From the NCBI GenBank assembly GCA_046350855.1, contig JAXLZM010000002.1, forward strand, positions 78,103 to 142,102: DNA of 64,000 bases. Reading direction: 5' to 3'. The position numbers were made by a program, and so were the translations under genes. The DNA comes from Candidatus Anderseniibacteriota bacterium (GTDB lineage Bacteria; Patescibacteriota; JAUYIX01). Numbering within the stretch: the first letter of the stretch is position 1; each line of letters starts with the position of its first letter. This document shows positions 255 to 8,272 of this stretch, one piece after another. The notes beneath the pieces were generated by a model. That model was not told the origin of the DNA and ran no database searches. It worked only from the letters and a program-made list of their open reading frames with translations.

Positions 255-1466
255 CTAACGAGAGTGCTTAGATTTTTTGAGCAGTCCGACAACCTGCGCC
301 AACTTTTCCACCGTCTGATCGAGTAGGGCTTGAGTTGTGCTCCGTCCCAGGGTGAACCGCACACTGCCGTGTGCCCGCGTGTAGGGGAGGCCAAGTGCAA
401 GGACCACGTGGGAGGGCTCGATACTGTGCGAGTCGCAGGTGGATCCCGTCGCCGCAGCCACACCGAGTTCGTCCAGCATGCTGATGATCGAATCGCCCTC
501 GATGCCTGGGATCGTGATGTGAATATTGTTGGGTAGGCGCTGCGTGGGGTGGCCGGTGAATTGGGCCTCGGGGACTGCCGTGAAGATCTTTTTAATGGTT
601 GCGTCGCGGAGTTTTGTCTGGCGAGCTGATTCAGTAACGCGGTCGGCTTCGGCCAACTCGAGGGATTTGGCAAAACCGACGATAGCAGCGACATTTTCCG
701 TGCCGGCGCGACGGTTGTCTTCTTGTGAGCCACCCACAATGAGGGGTTCGACTTGCACTCCACGCTCGGCAAGTTTTTTGCTGACGTACAAGAGCCCCAC
801 ACCTTTTGGCCCATACATCTTGCTGCCATTGAGCGTCATGAGATCGACGCCGAGCTCGCCCACAGCGAGTGGGAGCGCACCGGCCGCTTGGCAGGCGTCG
901 GTGTGGAACGGCACCTTGTGCTTGCGTGCAATGGCGGCCAGCTCGGTGATGGGTTCAACCGTGCCGACCTCGTTGTTGGCATACATGATCGAAATCAAAA
1001 TCGTTTTGTCGATGATGGCGGCCTCGAGCGTTTTGGGATCAACCAAGCCGGTGGCGTCGACCGGGAGGCGCGTCACGGCAAACCCCCAGCTCTCGAGCCG
1101 ATCGACCGCGCGCAAAACCGCTTTGTGTTCGATGGCCGAGACGATGACGTGGTTGCCGCGATTGGCCTTGCGCGCCGCCTGCGCGATGCCAAAGATCGCC
1201 ATGTTGTCGGACTCGGTGCCGGATCCGGTAAACATGAGTTCTTCTGGTGTGACGGATCCCGTGGCAGAACCACTCAAAATCTTTGCGATGCTCGCCCGAG
1301 CGGTATCGAGCGCCTGCTTAGCGGTTCGTCCCTCCTTATAGAGTGCGGATGGATTGCCAAACTCGGCGCCAAGGTATGGCTGCATCGCTACAAGAACGCG
1401 CGGGTCGAGGGGAGTGGTGGCGGCATGGTCGAGATAGATGCGCTCGGTGCGCGAAACGTTCTTCAT
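255..1466 (-). CDS. Cysteine desulfurase family protein (class V aminotransferase, NifS/IscS-like)
   Basis: 403-aa ORF. N-terminus 'IYLDHAATTP', PLP-lysine region 'LNGSKMYGPKGVGLLYV', C-terminal 'RFTLGR' typical of NifS/IscS desulfurases. Transcribed divergently from the DGR target gene. Confidence 0.8.
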   Translation of the reverse strand: MKNVSRTERIYLDHAATTPLDPRVLVAMQPYLGAEFGNPSALYKEGRTAKQALDTARASIAKILSGSATGSVTPEELMFTGSGTESDNMAIFGIAQAARKANRGNHVIVSAIEHKAVLRAVDRLESWGFAVTRLPVDATGLVDPKTLEAAIIDKTILISIMYANNEVGTVEPITELAAIARKHKVPFHTDACQAAGALPLAVGELGVDLMTLNGSKMYGPKGVGLLYVSKKLAERGVQVEPLIVGGSQEDNRRAGTENVAAIVGFAKSLELAEADRVTESARQTKLRDATIKKIFTAVPEAQFTGHPTQRLPNNIHITIPGIEGDSIISMLDELGVAAATGSTCDSHSIEPSHVVLALGLPYTRAHGSVRFTLGRSTTQALLDQTVEKLAQVVGLLKKSKHSR

Positions 1467-1548: not shown

Positions 1549-3441
1549 ATGCCAGGAGAACGCCCCGGACCAGGCCCAGAATTTTTAGGAGAAAAATACC
1601 AAGACCTGCCTGGTTCTAAACCGGTAGAGCGTGCCGTACAAAAAGAGCTACGCTCCGGCAAGCCCGGACCGACCACTAAAGAGGGTCGCATCGAATCGTA
1701 CCTGGGACGTCTCGAGCGCATCACCGAGGATGAGCGCGGCTATGAGCTCCTCAAAAATAAGCTCCTCAACAAATTTACAATCAATCTCGACGACACCGAG
1801 CTCGTTGACCGTATCGCCCACGGCCTCTACGAATCCGAGAAAAAGCTCGCCATCGAGCAAGGCCGCGGCGCAGATATCCGTCGCTTTGAGTCCGAGCAAA
1901 ACGTGGTCGAGCACTACAAACCGCTCGTCAAAGAAAAAGCCGAGATCCAGCAACGCACGCTCTCCAATTGGCTCGATTATCTCCAGCGCAACGACGCCAA
2001 ACAGCCCATGAGTTTTAGGTACTTTGTCGTACGCAGCCTCGAAAAAATGGGTCAGTTCGACAAAGAGCGCGGCCAGTACAGCAAACGCACGATCACCACC
2101 GTCGCGCCTTTTCCGGAGCTCAACTCCGAGGCACTTGGTTGGGTCTATCAGCGGCTCACCAAAGGTCTTGATCCGGACGAACAATACGACCCAGCGCAAA
2201 AAGCTGAGCTACAAAAACTCATCAAATCAAAAGACTTTGCCAAATTGTACGCCCATGCCCAAATCGAGACCGCCGGCAAACTCAACCGCGAATCACTCGA
2301 TGGAACCTGGAAAAAATATGACAAGGGTAGCGACTGGCGCACACTTGAGCATGATCTCAAAAACAAAGGTACCGGTTGGTGCACGGCCGAGGGCAGCGCC
2401 AAACCGCACCTGGCCGGCGGTGACTTTTTTGTCTATTACACCAAGGGTAAGGAGGGCAAGTACACCGAGCCGCGCGTCGCTATCCGCATGGAGGGCGACC
2501 ACATCGGTGAGGTCAGAGGTGTAGGGGCCAGGCAGGAGGTAGAACCGGCTCTTGTCGACGCAGCGCAGGCTAAGTACCACAAACTCCCGGGTGGCGAATC
2601 CTACGATAAAAAAGCCCACGACATGAAATACATGACCGCCCTTACCAAAAAACAGGCCGAGGGCAAACCCCTTACGGGACCAGACCTCAGATTCTTGTAC
2701 GAGCTCGACGCTCCGATCGAGAGCTTTGGGTACGATAAAGATCCTCGTGTCGCTGAGACTCGTAAAGGACGCGACGTTGAACAAGATATGTTGGCGGTTT
2801 TTGATGCGACGCCAGAGCAAATTGCACACCAAACGAGCGAGGTGCGTTCTGATACCAAGGCCTATGTCGGAAAATTAGAGCCGGGTGTTTTTGAGCTGCT
2901 CAGTAAATATCCTACAATTGAGCATATCTACACGAGCTTTCCAGAAAAGCCCATCCGCATCGAGCGACTTGAGACTGGTGGCAAAACCGCTGACCAGTAC
3001 ATCAAACTGCTCGAGGCGCAGGGTCACAAGATTTACGACTACGCCCTGGATATGCTCAAGAGTAAGGACTTTAAACCAGCCACCCAGGCGCAAAATCTCG
3101 AACTCGTACGACTCTCGGTCGGTGATCTTATGTTGCCTGAGGACCGTCAAAGGGGGTACCTCACTACGGATGAACTCTATAAGCGTGCAGACAGCTTTGG
3201 GTTGGACCTTGCTCCCGCCGAAACGGGCCCCGAACTCCGTCTCAAACTCAAAAACCAGCCAGTCGGTGAATACGTCTATGTAGGCATGAAGCCTATAACC
3301 GTTCGCGACGGCAATCCGAGCGTCTTCTGCGTCGAGCGCGGTGAGGATGGGTCCTGGCTCCAGCGGCGACGATGCCGGGCCCGTCAACTCGTGGGGTCCC
3401 GACCATCAGATCGTGTTCCGTCTCCGCAAGTAGCTTTGTGA
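1549..3441 (+). CDS. DGR target protein (variable protein). Large N-terminal domain of unknown function, C-terminal C-type-lectin-fold variable region. Frame as assembled is disrupted near the 3' end.
   Basis: ATG at 1549 lies in the divergent promoter region shared with the desulfurase gene. The C-terminal ~42 codons match the TR at 4894–5019 (− strand), mismatching only at TR adenines. With the 1-nt VR insertion removed, the C-terminus reads 'GNPSVFCVERGEDGSWLSGDDAGPVNSWGPDHQIVFRLRK*' (stop TAG 3431–3433), which fits the CLec-fold DGR VR consensus (GSW…N…FRLR). No signal peptide was seen. Confidence 0.85.
   Translation: MPGERPGPGPEFLGEKYQDLPGSKPVERAVQKELRSGKPGPTTKEGRIESYLGRLERITEDERGYELLKNKLLNKFTINLDDTELVDRIAHGLYESEKKLAIEQGRGADIRRFESEQNVVEHYKPLVKEKAEIQQRTLSNWLDYLQRNDAKQPMSFRYFVVRSLEKMGQFDKERGQYSKRTITTVAPFPELNSEALGWVYQRLTKGLDPDEQYDPAQKAELQKLIKSKDFAKLYAHAQIETAGKLNRESLDGTWKKYDKGSDWRTLEHDLKNKGTGWCTAEGSAKPHLAGGDFFVYYTKGKEGKYTEPRVAIRMEGDHIGEVRGVGARQEVEPALVDAAQAKYHKLPGGESYDKKAHDMKYMTALTKKQAEGKPLTGPDLRFLYELDAPIESFGYDKDPRVAETRKGRDVEQDMLAVFDATPEQIAHQTSEVRSDTKAYVGKLEPGVFELLSKYPTIEHIYTSFPEKPIRIERLETGGKTADQYIKLLEAQGHKIYDYALDMLKSKDFKPATQAQNLELVRLSVGDLMLPEDRQRGYLTTDELYKRADSFGLDLAPAETGPELRLKLKNQPVGEYVYVGMKPITVRDGNPSVFCVERGEDGSWLQRRRCRARQLVGSRPSDRVPSPQVAL
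3304..3429 (+). repeat. DGR variable repeat (VR) at the 3' end of the target gene
   Basis: About 126–127 nt homologous to the reverse complement of 4894–5019. About 18 substitutions, all at positions that are A in the TR sense strand. One extra C after 'ggctc' (about 3361). Ends in the shared GC-rich 'gttccgtctccgcaa'. Confidence 0.85.
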
Positions 3442-3442
3442 T

Positions 3443-4282
3443 TTAGAAGTTTTTGACATTTGGACTCTTAGGCTCTTTGGTACTTTGTCGTCTCGCAATT
3501 TGCTGATCTAAGCGATGTGCCAGTTTATACGTATTACCGTGGCTCAATAATCCGCGGTAAGACGCGATGGTCCCGGTGGAGTAGTTTTCTTGCAGTCGCT
3601 TTACGATTCTACGTTTTGTCGACGTGCGTAATACGCGGTGGCCTGGAAAATGTACCCAACCTAAAAAATCAACACCCGAGGCCAGCGTGGTGATAGATAA
3701 TTTGCGCGGGTGCAGTGATAATTTGAGACGCGTAGTAAGAAATCTTGCGATTTTAGGTATGAGTTGCTGTAGATACTCATACTCGCTACTCAGTATCACA
3801 AAGTCATCTGCATAGCGTACGTAATGCCGTGCCCTCAGTGTTCTTTTGATGTACGCATCTAGTTCGTGCATGTATATATTGATGAGGAGTTGGCTCGTTA
3901 CGTTACCAAGCGGCAGCCCGATCCCGGGCCTGTCAGTAGTGTGGAAACTCGTAATGACTCGCTCAAAAAGCCAAAGGACATGTTCATCCATAATGGACTT
4001 GCGCAAGAGTGCCATGAGCGTAGCTTGATCGATCGAGGCAAAAAACTTTTGTATGTCACATTTGAGCACCCAACACGTACGCGTATTGTTGCGCGAGACT
4101 TTACGCGCGAATGCTCTAAATCGGTTGAGCGCGCGGTGGGTACCTTTATTACGCCGACAAGAAAAAGCATCAAATAAAAATATGTGATCAAAATATGGAT
4201 AGAGTTGACGATAAATCGCGTGATGCACGACTCGGTCGCGCACCGTTGCCTTGTGGATGTCGCGCGGTTTTGGATCACTCAC
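3443..4282 (-). CDS. DGR reverse transcriptase. The ORF as called starts at GTG 4282; the conserved N-terminal domain continues in frame upstream to ~4480 with no start codon.
   Basis: Motifs 'FRDRVVHHA'-like 'VRDRVVHHAIY', 'SCRRNKGTH', the DGR-specific motif-4 variant 'LPLGNVTSQ' ([IL]GxxxSQ), catalytic 'YVRYADDFVIL', and 'GVDFLGW'. The upstream in-frame translation 'SFDSIISLDNLLESWRAFARGKRHRQDVARFSLQLIDNLLALHGDLKTGSYQHGPYHHFKVSDPKPRD' matches the conserved DGR RT N-terminus. Confidence 0.9.
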   Translation of the reverse strand: MSDPKPRDIHKATVRDRVVHHAIYRQLYPYFDHIFLFDAFSCRRNKGTHRALNRFRAFARKVSRNNTRTCWVLKCDIQKFFASIDQATLMALLRKSIMDEHVLWLFERVITSFHTTDRPGIGLPLGNVTSQLLINIYMHELDAYIKRTLRARHYVRYADDFVILSSEYEYLQQLIPKIARFLTTRLKLSLHPRKLSITTLASGVDFLGWVHFPGHRVLRTSTKRRIVKRLQENYSTGTIASYRGLLSHGNTYKLAHRLDQQIARRQSTKEPKSPNVKNF

Positions 4283-4475
4283 TTTAAAATGATGGTACGG
4301 ACCATGCTGGTACGAGCCAGTCTTTAGATCACCGTGGAGCGCTAGTAGATTGTCAATTAACTGCAGCGAAAAGCGTGCAACGTCTTGTCGATGTCGCTTA
4401 CCTCGTGCGAATGCCCTCCAAGATTCCAGGAGATTGTCTAAAGAGATGATAGAATCAAAACTTACATGAGTAAAA

Positions 4476-4514
<39 letters not shown>

Positions 4515-4527
4515 AAACGCGACCATT

Positions 4528-4875
4528 TTGCATCGGCTGCGAGAGGCGTACCTGGCCTGGTCCGCGGTTCTGCCGCACATAGCTAAGTCTGCTCGGTACG
4601 GGATCGGTGCCCGCATCGATAATCGTTTTTTGAGTCTGTTGGAGCGTACGCATGTGACGTATTTTAGCGCACGTGCACTGCGCGGCGAAAAAATTGCAAA
4701 CTGCATTGTTGAACTCGATACGCTCAAGTTTTTACTAGCAACGGCCTGGGAGGCTAAGCATATTTCTAATCACCAGTACGAGTTAGTGGCACTAAAACTA
4801 GAAGAAGTAGGTAAGATGTTTGGCGGTTGGAAAAAATCGCTCGCCACTAGTAATAAAAACCGCACGCTTTGGTAG
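4528..4875 (+). CDS. avd: Avd-like accessory variability determinant (four-helix-bundle / 23S rRNA IVS-protein family)
   Basis: 115 aa, basic. C-terminal 'LDTLKFLLATAWEAKHISNHQYELVALKLEEVGKMFGGWKKSL' follows the Avd/IVS four-helix-bundle pattern (compare Avd '…HQVETAQVLIAEVGRILGSWI…'). TTG start. Encoded divergently from RT, between RT and TR. Confidence 0.75.
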   Translation: MHRLREAYLAWSAVLPHIAKSARYGIGARIDNRFLSLLERTHVTYFSARALRGEKIANCIVELDTLKFLLATAWEAKHISNHQYELVALKLEEVGKMFGGWKKSLATSNKNRTLW

Positions 4876-4893
4876 GTGCGGAAAAGAGCCAGT

Positions 4894-5019
4894 TGCGGAG
4901 ACGGAACACGATCTGATTGTCGGGATTCCACTTGTTGTCGGGCTTGGCATTGTTGCTGTTGAGCCAGGACCCATCCTCATTGCGCTTGACGTTGAAGACG
5001 CTCGGATTGCCGTCTCGAT
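4894..5019 (-). repeat. DGR template repeat (TR), sense on the minus strand
   Basis: The reverse complement aligns with VR 3304–3429. It is adenine-rich in AAC/AAT codon positions ('aacagcaacaatgccaagcccgacaacaagtggaatcccgacaat'). Translated in the VR frame it gives 'GNPSVFNVKRNEDGSWLNSNNAKPDNKWNPDNQIVFRLRN'. A 6-bp-stem hairpin (4861–4882) lies immediately 3' of it on the minus strand. Confidence 0.85.
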
Positions 5020-5328
5020 CGGTTTGTACGATGTGCCATCCGTAACACTGCTTGCGCAGCAAAACAGCAGATCAAAGCGCCAAGCTGTATTGATTGCGTG
5101 ATCAAAAATCAGCCAGCACATCGCACCAAGTAGTTCTTTTTTAATGAGCTAGACACGGGTCCTCCGCAGATAGCCTTGACCATCCACGTTCTCAATCCAT
5201 GGTAGTCAATTTAGTCTCGCAAAGCCGTAACCGTACGATACGACTAAATCGGTTGAATTGTAGCAAAAAGGTCTTGACGTTCCGCCCGATCCTCAATATA
5301 GTACCAATCTAGTCTACTTACGCTCAAT

Positions 5329-5772
5329 TTGGTGTTACGCATCGGTCGGCTAACGGATTACGGCATCGATTTACTCACGCTTTTTGTGGACCCGCGCGAG
5401 CCGCTCGGCGTGCAAGGGATTTCTGCGACGGAACTGGCTCGACGCTCAGGTGTGCCGCTCCCGACCGTCAGCAAAATCTGCAAGCTCCTCACTAAAGCCG
5501 AGTTGCTTGTCGCCAGTCGTGGCAAAACCGGCGGGTATCGGTTGGCGCGCGATCCGAGTGAGATTTCGGTCGCCGATGTCGTGCGAGCACTGGAGGGTCC
5601 GATCGCACTGACGGCCTGTGTGGCCGATCCTGGGAGTTGCGCTCTCGAAGACAGTTGCGGAACGCGCACCAACTGGCAACGGATCAACCAGCACGTTTTT
5701 GCGTCGCTCGAGTCGGTCAAGATTTCTGAGATGCGAAGTCCTGTTCGGCATAAAAAGTTCGCCCATGTCTAA
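5329..5772 (+). CDS. Rrf2-family transcriptional regulator (IscR/SufR-like, Cys-containing)
   Basis: N-terminal HTH 'GISATELARRSGVPLPTVSKICKLL' and a Cys cluster 'CVADPGSCALEDSC'. Immediately upstream of sufB. Confidence 0.85.
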   Translation: MVLRIGRLTDYGIDLLTLFVDPREPLGVQGISATELARRSGVPLPTVSKICKLLTKAELLVASRGKTGGYRLARDPSEISVADVVRALEGPIALTACVADPGSCALEDSCGTRTNWQRINQHVFASLESVKISEMRSPVRHKKFAHV

Positions 5773-8272
5773 GACAACGCTCCAGCAACTCAGTACGCAG
5801 CCATATAAGTATGGTTTTTCGAGTAAGATCGCGACGGACACCGTGCCGGTCGGTCTTAACGAAGACATTATCCGCATGATCTCTACTAAAAAGCACGAAC
5901 CAGCCTGGCTTCTCGAGTGGCGTCTGCGAGCTTTTAAGTTTTGGCAGACGCTCACACCGCCGACCTGGCAAAATGTCGAGTTCCCCGCCATCGACTACCA
6001 GGCCATTCGTTACTACGCCGCTCCCAAGCGCCGCGCTCTCAAGAGTCTCGACCAAGTTGATCCGGAGATTCGACGCATGTTCGACAAGCTTGGTATCTCA
6101 CTGGACGAACAAAAACGTATCAGTGGTGTTGCCATGGACGCCGTGGTTGATAGCGCCTCGGTTGCGACCACTTTTAGTAAGGAACTCGCACGCCTCGGCA
6201 TTATTTTTTGCAGCTTGAGCGAAGCCGTGCAAAAACATCCCGATCTCGTACGCAAAAATCTCGGCACAGTTGTATCGTTTGGCGACAATTACTTTGCCAG
6301 CCTCAACGCGGCGGTCTTCAGCGACGGCTCGTTCTGCTATATCCCCAAAGGCGTGCGCTGTCCCATGGAGCTTTCGACGTATTTCCGCATCAACTCGGCG
6401 GGCACCGGTCAGTTTGAGCGGACGCTTATTATTGCGGAAGATGATGCGTACGTAAGTTATCTAGAGGGCTGCTTGCCAGGTGATGAGGAGGTCTCTTGTG
6501 GAGATCAAATCAAAACAATCCGGGACATTGAGGTCGGCAGTGACGTCGTCAATCATGAGGGAGAGCAAGCGCAGGTTGGAAAGATAATGCGAAGAGGTTA
6601 TGACGGCGAAATGTTTGAAATTACACCGCGTAGTCCGGGAAATGCATTTAGAATAACGTCAGAACATCCTGTTTTGTCTATCAAACGTGAATTAGTGCAG
6701 CGCTCAGTGAGGCCTGAAGGAAGATGGAGCGATATTGATCAGGCTAAGCTGGAAAAAACTCAACCGACCTTTACTCCCGCGAAGGACTTAACGGAAGGAG
6801 ATCTACTCGTATTTCCGGTTAATAAGATTGAAAAGAACGACTCGACATTGAGTGACGACTTCCTCAAATTATTGGGTTATTACATTGCAGAGGGGTGCTC
6901 GACAAAATTCAATGGATATAACGCGACTGAATTCTCTTTGGGTGATCACGAAGCAGACCTAATCGATGAGGTTTGCGAATTAATTGAAAAAATCACGGGT
7001 AAGCGCCCATCTTGCTCGCATGATGTACGTAAGCACGGAATGTACATCGTTACATACGACAAAGACCTTTTTGCCAAGTTACTCGAACATGGTGGAAAAT
7101 ATGCGCTTTACAAGAAAATGAGTAAGACGATTATGGAGTTGCCGCCGCAAAGACAAAAACTTTTGATTGAAACGTATTACAAGGGCGATGGCTCTCGATC
7201 AAAGGAAGGAAGTTTAACGCGAGTTCGGGCCGCAACAATATCGAGAAACCTGGCATTCCAGATGCAAGAATTACTTGCGCGACAGGGAATCTTCGCCTAC
7301 ATGAATACGCGCGAAGCATTCTCAGAACGCATGAAGGACGGACATTTTATTCACCATAAAAAACGGTACGTTCTGTTTTATGCAGAAAACACTCGTAGCA
7401 GACGGGCGATTCGTAAAGAAGATTACTTTTTGGTGCCAATTAAGAGCGTCAGCAAAAAGCGCTTTAGAGGTTTTGTATATAACTTTGAAACTAAACAGGA
7501 GCCCCATTCATATTTGGTAAAGGGCTTTGCGGTTCATAACTGTACGGCGCCTCGTCGTGATGAAAACCAACTGCACGCGGCCGTGGTTGAGTTAGTCGCG
7601 AAAGATCGCGCAGAAATTAAGTACGCCACGGTCCAAAACTGGTATCCCGGCGACGCCGACGGCAAGGGCGGCATTTACAACTTTGTTACCAAGCGCGGCA
7701 AGTGCCAGGGTAAAAACAGCAAGATTAGCTGGACGCAGGTTGAAACCGGTTCTGCCATTACCTGGAAATATCCGAGCGTGATTTTATTTGGCGACAACTC
7801 GGTGGGCGAATTTTACTCGGTAGCCCTGACCGCCAACCGCCAGCAAGCCGACACCGGCAGCAAGATGACGCACATCGGCAAAAACACGCGCAGCACGATT
7901 ATTTCTAAGGGGATCGCGGCCGGCCACGGGCGCAACACCTATCGCGGGTTGGTGCGCATCATGAGTACCGCCACGGGTGCCCACAATTACACCCAGTGCG
8001 ACTCGCTCATGCTGGGCGAGCACTGTCAGGCTACGACTCTGCCGTATATCGAGCAGCGTAACGACACCTCGACCATCGAGCACGAGGCCAGTACCGCCAC
8101 CATTCGGGATGAACAGCTGGTTTATTTGCGCCAGCGTGGCATCGCCGAAGAAGAAGCGGTCAGCATGATCGTCAATGGTTTTGGCAAGACGGTTTTTAAA
8201 CGCTTGCCGCTTGAGTTTGCCGTGGAAGCCCGAAACTTACTCAGCCTACGACTAGAAGGGAGCATCGCCTAA
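5765..8272 (+). CDS. sufB: Fe-S cluster assembly protein SufB, interrupted by an in-frame intein
   Basis: Extein sequences '…IIAEDDAYVSYLEG' and 'CTAPRRDENQLHAAVVELV…' flank a 357-aa insertion. C-terminal extein 'GHGRNTYRGLVRI…CDSLMLGE' is typical SufB. Extein length is about 478 aa. Confidence 0.9.
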   Translation: MSKTTLQQLSTQPYKYGFSSKIATDTVPVGLNEDIIRMISTKKHEPAWLLEWRLRAFKFWQTLTPPTWQNVEFPAIDYQAIRYYAAPKRRALKSLDQVDPEIRRMFDKLGISLDEQKRISGVAMDAVVDSASVATTFSKELARLGIIFCSLSEAVQKHPDLVRKNLGTVVSFGDNYFASLNAAVFSDGSFCYIPKGVRCPMELSTYFRINSAGTGQFERTLIIAEDDAYVSYLEGCLPGDEEVSCGDQIKTIRDIEVGSDVVNHEGEQAQVGKIMRRGYDGEMFEITPRSPGNAFRITSEHPVLSIKRELVQRSVRPEGRWSDIDQAKLEKTQPTFTPAKDLTEGDLLVFPVNKIEKNDSTLSDDFLKLLGYYIAEGCSTKFNGYNATEFSLGDHEADLIDEVCELIEKITGKRPSCSHDVRKHGMYIVTYDKDLFAKLLEHGGKYALYKKMSKTIMELPPQRQKLLIETYYKGDGSRSKEGSLTRVRAATISRNLAFQMQELLARQGIFAYMNTREAFSERMKDGHFIHHKKRYVLFYAENTRSRRAIRKEDYFLVPIKSVSKKRFRGFVYNFETKQEPHSYLVKGFAVHNCTAPRRDENQLHAAVVELVAKDRAEIKYATVQNWYPGDADGKGGIYNFVTKRGKCQGKNSKISWTQVETGSAITWKYPSVILFGDNSVGEFYSVALTANRQQADTGSKMTHIGKNTRSTIISKGIAAGHGRNTYRGLVRIMSTATGAHNYTQCDSLMLGEHCQATTLPYIEQRNDTSTIEHEASTATIRDEQLVYLRQRGIAEEEAVSMIVNGFGKTVFKRLPLEFAVEARNLLSLRLEGSIA
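6470..7540 (+). mobile_element. Intein with LAGLIDADG homing-endonuclease domain inside sufB
   Basis: Starts with Cys1 ('CLPGDEEV'). Block B 'RITSEHPVLS'. LAGLIDADG-like motifs 'KLLGYYIAEGCS' and 'LIETYYKGDGSRS'. C-terminal blocks 'FVYNFETKQEPHSYLVKGFAVHN' ending His-Asn, followed by +1 Cys (7541). Confidence 0.85.

Follow-up and report, generated by a model that had tools for sequence, protein, structure and literature searches.

An extra nucleotide in the variable repeat shifts the reading frame of a diversity-generating retroelement target gene in a Patescibacteria genome

The prototype diversity-generating retroelement (DGR), that of Bordetella phage BPP-1, has the order mtd-avd-TR-brt, in which TR is the template repeat. 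It encodes a reverse transcriptase (RT) with SQ and YxDD motifs and the four-helix-bundle accessory protein Avd, and its TR differs from the variable repeat (VR) in an adenine-specific manner. In the candidate phyla radiation (CPR), architecture B3, TR-(avd)-RT, makes up 90% of the surveyed set (PMC5758913), and DGR clade 2 is restricted to Patescibacteria (Roux et al. 2021, PMC8144416). TR and VR are not always of equal length. Length differences were reported in 25 of 372 DGRs (7%), 14 of them multiples of three and 11 frameshifting (Wu et al. 2018, Nucleic Acids Res 46:11, PMC5758913). In that survey 74% of the insertions and deletions (indels) adjoined a TR AAC, which was attributed to template slippage on AAC repeats (PMC5758913). 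Transient slippage at AC contexts was also proposed for bRT of the reconstituted Bordetella element, where the register must return if insertions are to be avoided (2026 study, PMC12875486). In this study, a DGR was analysed in a 64-kb stretch of DNA from a Candidatus Anderseniibacteriota bacterium (contig JAXLZM010000002.1), hereafter the window. The VR in its target gene carried one base more than the TR, and the conserved C-terminus of the target was lost from the assembled reading frame. The VR of the window is a fresh instance of an already catalogued DGR side-effect.

One imperfect inverted-repeat pair was present in the 64-kb window, at 3297-3435 on the plus strand and 5024-4887 on the minus strand. 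The features needed for its description were as follows.

1549-3441, plus strand: target gene of the DGR, 630 aa in the assembled frame (NCBI U0517_01960); once corrected for the frameshift, it ends at 3433 and encodes 627 aa
3297-3427, plus strand: VR, 131 nt, recognized from the repeat arms, the alignments and the adenine-confined mismatches; it encodes the last ~44 residues of the target
3360-3363, plus strand: site of the extra nucleotide, located by gap placement and frame translations; the remainder of the target gene is out of frame
3407-3435, plus strand: 3′ end of the VR, including the restored stop codon TAG at 3431-3433
4887-5024, minus strand (sense): TR, of which 5024-4895 pairs with the VR; its in-frame peptide ends in ...DRDGNPSVFNVKRNEDGSWLNSNNAKPDNKWNPDNQIVFRLRN and has the length standard for the family

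The VR (3297-3427) and the TR differed by 19 substitutions, and all 19 were at TR adenines, which make up 37 of the 130 TR bases (hypergeometric P = 5.9e-13). They consisted of 12 A>G, 4 A>T and 3 A>C changes, and there was no non-adenine substitution within the 131 nt of the VR. Because the mismatches were confined to adenines of one copy, the minus-strand copy was assigned as the TR and the plus-strand copy as the VR of a DGR, as the first-pass annotation had proposed. A GC-rich, initiation of mutagenic homing (IMH)-like segment of 23 nt (3407-3429) was the same in both repeats, and this 23-mer occurred nowhere else in the window. The VR boundary was marked by non-adenine differences at 3430 and 3432. 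The window held one VR and one TR, and no second VR, TR or target was found in it. No stable hairpin was found downstream of the VR in 3405-3500, where the minimum free energy was −2.2 kcal/mol, worse than that of shuffled sequences.

The two halves of the repeat, 3297-3360 with 4961-5024 and 3361-3435 with 4887-4961, were exactly one base out of register, and pairwise alignment with MAFFT gave a single gap. This agreed with the earlier statement that the VR is 1 nt longer than the TR. That statement had put the extra C right after 'tcctggctc', and exhaustive gap placement showed this to be one of three tied positions: a C at 3360, a C at 3361, or a G at 3363. All three fell at the TR sequence CTC|AAC. 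The assembled +1 site, within 3350-3375, read CTCCAGCGG.

The effect of the extra base on the protein was determined by translation. The assembled frame continued as ...SWLQRRRCRARQLVGSRPSDRVPSPQVAL into an Arg-rich tail that ended with TGA at 3439-3441. When one base was deleted, the protein ended in ...SWLSGDDAGPVNSWGPDHQIVFRLRK*, also given as ...GEDGSWLSGDDAGPVNSWGPDHQIVFRLRK, with TAG at 3431-3433, so the claim that removal of one base restores the conserved C-terminus was borne out. The shift starts after Leu604, and 26 unrelated residues stand in place of the final 23. The list of diversified codons that accompanied this claim was essentially right, with every change at an adenine. It had omitted S>G (AGC>GGC), K>S (AAG>TCG) and a silent CGA>CGC, and D>V occurred twice. 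The annotated 3′ end had also been called wrong. NCBI U0517_01960, from a 229,149-bp contig of a Candidatus Andersenbacteria metagenome-assembled genome (MAG), was 100% identical to the assembled open reading frame (ORF) over 630 aa and therefore reads the deposited DNA exactly; what it does not describe is the functional form. The deposited 630-aa protein thus carries a meaningless 26-residue tail, and the TR frame is preferable when DGR targets are modelled or clustered.

The restored frame was compared with the protein family. A total of 1,751 target homologues (E <= 0.001) were of ~610-640 aa and came nearly all from Patescibacteria MAGs; the closest match after the deposited protein itself was 62% identical. 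Homologues ended in the pattern ...G.P.VF.V.R..DG.WL....A.P...W.P...FVFRLRK, followed by zero to ~10 residues. The corrected C-terminus agreed column by column with the consensus of 36 and of 81 homologues, in which Phe623 was invariant (81 sequences) and Trp615 was conserved in >=90%. The peptide encoded by the TR also matched the family consensus WLxxxxAxPxxxWxPxxxFVFRLRK in length. Since the corrected protein and the TR peptide both fitted the family pattern, it was the VR that gained a base. A deletion in the TR in place of an insertion in the VR was ruled out, because the TR peptide was of family-standard length.

The consequence of the shift was examined on an AlphaFold model of the corrected protein, which had a mean predicted local distance difference test (pLDDT) score of 90.4, and of 95.3 for the C-terminal domain alone. 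In this model, the C-terminal domain ends in three beta strands that are encoded by the VR (residues 590-598, 601-608 and 620-625). The frameshift costs half of the penultimate strand and the entire conserved terminal strand (FVFRLRK), which carries Phe623 and follows Trp615. Because these strands of the predicted ligand-binding domain are lost, the frameshifted allele is most probably null and non-functional. In the indels reported by Wu et al., the TR and VR likewise differed in length at AAC, the variable C-terminus was shifted and the changes were otherwise adenine-only. However, some of those were read as extra diversification, whereas the shift in the window removes the conserved terminal strand and looks destructive.

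A null protein would not result if programmed +1 ribosomal frameshifting or transcriptional slippage compensated for the extra base and the normal protein was still made. We regard this as very improbable, and nothing was found in its favour. The site, TGG CTC CAG CGG, offers no slippery heptamer, no homopolymer run and no in-frame stop or rare-codon pause of the kind exploited at known +1 sites; no slippery motif was found at 3355-3370, and relatives are in frame there. Such a site would also be unconserved, since the VR is rewritten at each retrohoming.

We favour, with some reserve, the reading that the extra base is a real null allele that was made by the DGR and that the next retrohoming could repair. 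For this reading we infer that the base was inserted by the RT, that the allele existed in the organism, that its function was lost and that the loss is reversible. In the proposed mechanism, the DGR RT copies TR RNA into complementary DNA (cDNA), inserting bases at random where the template has an adenine, and this cDNA takes the place of the VR. The RT would have slipped one position at the adenine-rich CTC-AAC-AGC-AAC-AAT during the last retrohoming, by which the cDNA and then the VR would have gained one base. The resulting null would have become the dominant allele in the sampled population, and a later retrohoming would overwrite the entire VR and bring the gene back into frame. Both ends of the VR, the 5′ homology and the IMH-like 3′ end, were intact, so the VR can be overwritten in principle. 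This meant that the term 'pseudogenised', which had been offered for a genuine extra base, was overstated, and a transient null would fit better.

Length changes were then surveyed in relatives. With one genome scanned per species, 80 loci coding for target homologues were obtained, and about 40 TR/VR pairs from this family were compared. Five further indel events were found in four of these loci, all at TR AAC/AAT runs.

L009: VR 3 nt shorter than the TR, in frame
L012: VR 3 nt longer than the TR, in frame, before TTGGGCG
L031: VR with one loss and one gain of 3 nt relative to the TR, in frame; the gain is at the same spot as in L012
L079 (Candidatus Nomurabacteria SJ250): VR at 3462-3584, TR at 3920-4046; VR 4 nt shorter, frameshifted

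In L079, 4 nt were missing opposite the TR sequence TACAACAAG, which put ...KFVFRVRK* out of frame, as in the window. The window and the five events in relatives support the published proposal of RT slippage at AAC-rich templates. The changes in relatives were mostly multiples of three and came from independent assemblies, and such a bias is expected from selection on real alleles.

These observations also bear on the possibility that the extra base is an artefact of assembly or consensus, in which heterogeneous in-frame VR reads were collapsed, for example during long-read consensus or polishing. This explanation is plausible and less probable than a real allele. The VR of an active DGR is heterogeneous by nature, and contigs of a related species often stop just before the VR, where assemblers evidently struggle. 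Among the assemblies of a Candidatus Paceibacter species, two contigs (L084, L089) ended within the target upstream of the VR and three (L086, L090, L092) ended short of the target; the five others spanned the VR and were identical. These contig ends were consistent with assembly breaks at a heterogeneous VR. However, variants that differ only by substitution have the same length, and a de Bruijn-graph path should not gain a base from them without a read that carries the insertion. The artefact would thus require an insertion-bearing read or a long-read consensus step. The same class of length change was moreover seen in the independent assemblies of relatives and in the published survey (PMC5758913). 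There was also no sign of indel error in the remainder of the window. It held long intact ORFs of up to 1,355 aa, and the 10 likeliest candidates for split genes matched Pfam domains end to end. General assembly indel error was therefore low, and a real allele was favoured because the rest of the window showed no broken genes.

The cassette contains two further genes.

3443-4465, minus strand: DGR RT, RVT_1 E 9e-23, 81.5 bits (cut-off 29.6), with LGNVTSQ and YADD motifs
4528-4875, plus strand: avd, start codon TTG, 115 aa, in the opposite orientation to the TR and RT

The RT was ~60-65% identical to thousands of CPR RTs. The avd product scored 51.6 bits with Pfam bAvd, over the cut-off of 40, and 51.2 bits with NCBIfam DivGenRetAVD, under the cut-off of 80. 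No stop or frameshift was found in the RT, avd or TR. The intact RT, avd and TR, together with a VR free of non-adenine changes, point to recent DGR activity as judged from the sequence. The extra base could instead be an ordinary replication or repair indel in a DGR that had stopped, and mark the start of decay of the target. This is unlikely in our view. For the RT, no canonical start codon is present and the annotation gives a truncated protein of 279 aa. Many target homologues have no adjacent DGR, so the family survives undiversified and DGRs are evidently lost; both points would fit decay. However, an abandoned cassette would gather random changes (argument in PMC3521204), and neither a non-adenine substitution in the 131-nt VR nor a broken RT, avd or TR was present. 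The conserved N-terminus of the RT (HVSFDSIISLDNLL) begins near 4465, and its first 61 codons are conserved and open, which also speaks against decay. The absence of a canonical start was furthermore common to the related loci L015, L040, L045 and L067, so unusual initiation may be normal to the clade and not a defect. On the minus strand, an out-of-frame ATG at 4467-4465 was followed by TAA.

Several points weigh against a real, repairable, DGR-made allele. The RT frame had no in-frame ATG, GTG or TTG until a GTG at 4282, and the NCBI RT (P0121) covers only 3443-4282 from this internal GTG. Without production of the RT, repair of the allele would not be possible. The adjacency of the extra base to AAC was modest evidence, because a random TR junction contacts AAC in 15% and AAN in 38% of cases. 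Exact-protein look-ups of the target and avd products gave no second assembly or allele of the organism, with a single member in the protein cluster, and two exact DNA scans of JGI metagenomes, with the unique flank before the VR and with the 23-mer shared by VR and TR, gave 0 matches. Hypervariable regions are also the places where consensus and polishing steps err. With a DGR-made allele still preferred, the window suggests that frameshifted, probably null alleles can sometimes become dominant in a natural population of ultra-small bacteria. The frameshifted VR by itself opens no new question.

The layout of the cassette was compared with that of the described systems. A DGR-type RT, adenine-confined TR/VR differences, a 3′-terminal VR in the target and an Avd were all present. 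The likeness to BPP-1 extended to the SQ and YxDD motifs of the RT, the accessory Avd, the adenine-specific TR/VR differences, the position of the VR at the 3′ end of the target, and an IMH-like shared 3′ stretch followed by few differences. In contrast to BPP-1, the window has avd on the opposite strand between the TR and RT, its target is a cellular protein without a known domain, and no hairpin was found downstream of the VR. Where BPP-1 carries the priming spacer, between TR and RT, the window carries antisense avd and a (GA)n tract. Compared with CPR DGRs (architecture B3; clade 2), the window had the same gene order and strands and a domain-less target, and nothing essential differed. 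The cassette is thus an ordinary intact CPR-type DGR of architecture B3, consisting of target, RT, opposite-strand avd and TR. The module follows the target in inverted orientation, which is one of several arrangements among relatives. In 29 of 29 related loci carrying both genes, avd and RT were head to head, about 50-90 nt apart, and the TR lay past the 3′ end of avd in the orientation of the RT. Misassembly or inversion as the cause of the opposite-strand avd was ruled out by these 29 loci and by the published B3 architecture.

The identity of the target domain was less clear. The first-pass annotation had used the word 'lectin', for which the backing was weak. The top solved folds were C-type lectin domains (Mincle, BDCA2, DCIR), with E values of 0.1-0.6 and template modelling (TM) scores of 0.40-0.45, so the C-type lectin label may weakly serve as a lead. 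No Pfam or NCBIfam family was found for the target, and Pfam gave none for 36 homologues either. For residues ~150-440, the top Foldseek match to viral structures was to PcfJ-like phage proteins (E ~0.01, probability 0.98). A PcfJ-like motif is among the few motifs in CPR DGR targets (Wu et al. 2018, PMC5758913). The link for the middle of the target would rest on weak Foldseek matches to viral models, and Pfam gave no match that supports it for the target and the 36 homologues. Aberrant or truncated C-termini, such as ...FRLPQVALDS and ...FRLPASPSAS..., were observed in other target homologues, P0009, P0020 (locus L002, 1518-3401), P0011 and P0048. These suggest further frameshifts near the conserved end. 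An RT or TR was not present near L002.

A second feature of the cassette was observed between avd and RT.

4479-4513, no strand assigned: (CT)17.5 tract found with TRF, which reads (GA)n on the strand of the RT and TR and lies in the ~60-nt gap that separates the head-to-head genes avd and RT

In the TRF search, this tract was the only simple repeat of the 64-kb window. Of 29 related loci (L008-L081), 28 had (GA)n of 5-21 units or G9-G14 in the avd-RT gap, as read on the RT strand. Across 905,634 nt, 31 of 39 such tracts were in avd-RT gaps of ~60-90 nt, and of the eight elsewhere, four adjoined an avd or RT that was cut by a contig end or was a second copy. Where an ATG was present, it lay 5-16 nt past the tract, so the tract may belong to the ribosome-binding region. 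Its length and repeat nature also suggest a switch or a DGR RNA element. In Haemophilus influenzae, the (TA)n repeat of hifA/hifB is a case of simple-repeat phase variation at divergent promoters. The tract in the window likewise lies between divergent genes, but tracts of its kind showed no length polymorphism within two species, whose samples came from few projects. In the Paceibacter species, ten assemblies carried an identical short (GA) tract, GAGAGAGAGG, with identical VRs where these were covered, and in a Giovannonibacteria species G10 was found in 6 of 6 assemblies. Phase variation of the tract was thus unsupported. A literature search on DGRs with simple repeats or phase variation gave no mention of the tract and no relevant paper.

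In the broadest reading, DGR frameshifts would be a regular, reversible OFF state, and the avd-RT tract would govern the retroelement, either as a switch that depends on tract length or as a polypurine element within a TR-antisense-avd-RT RNA. We consider this speculative and improbable. If it were true, retrohoming would add on/off switching to sequence diversification. The avd-RT purine tract may merit a separate look.

The DGR is flanked by a class-V aminotransferase gene (cysteine desulfurase-like, 255-1466, minus strand) on one side and by an Rrf2 regulator and a suf operon on the other. The SufB gene of this operon (5768-8272) was split by an intein with a LAGLIDADG homing endonuclease, recognized by a SUFBD core and LAGLIDADG_3, with Intein_splicing below its cut-off.

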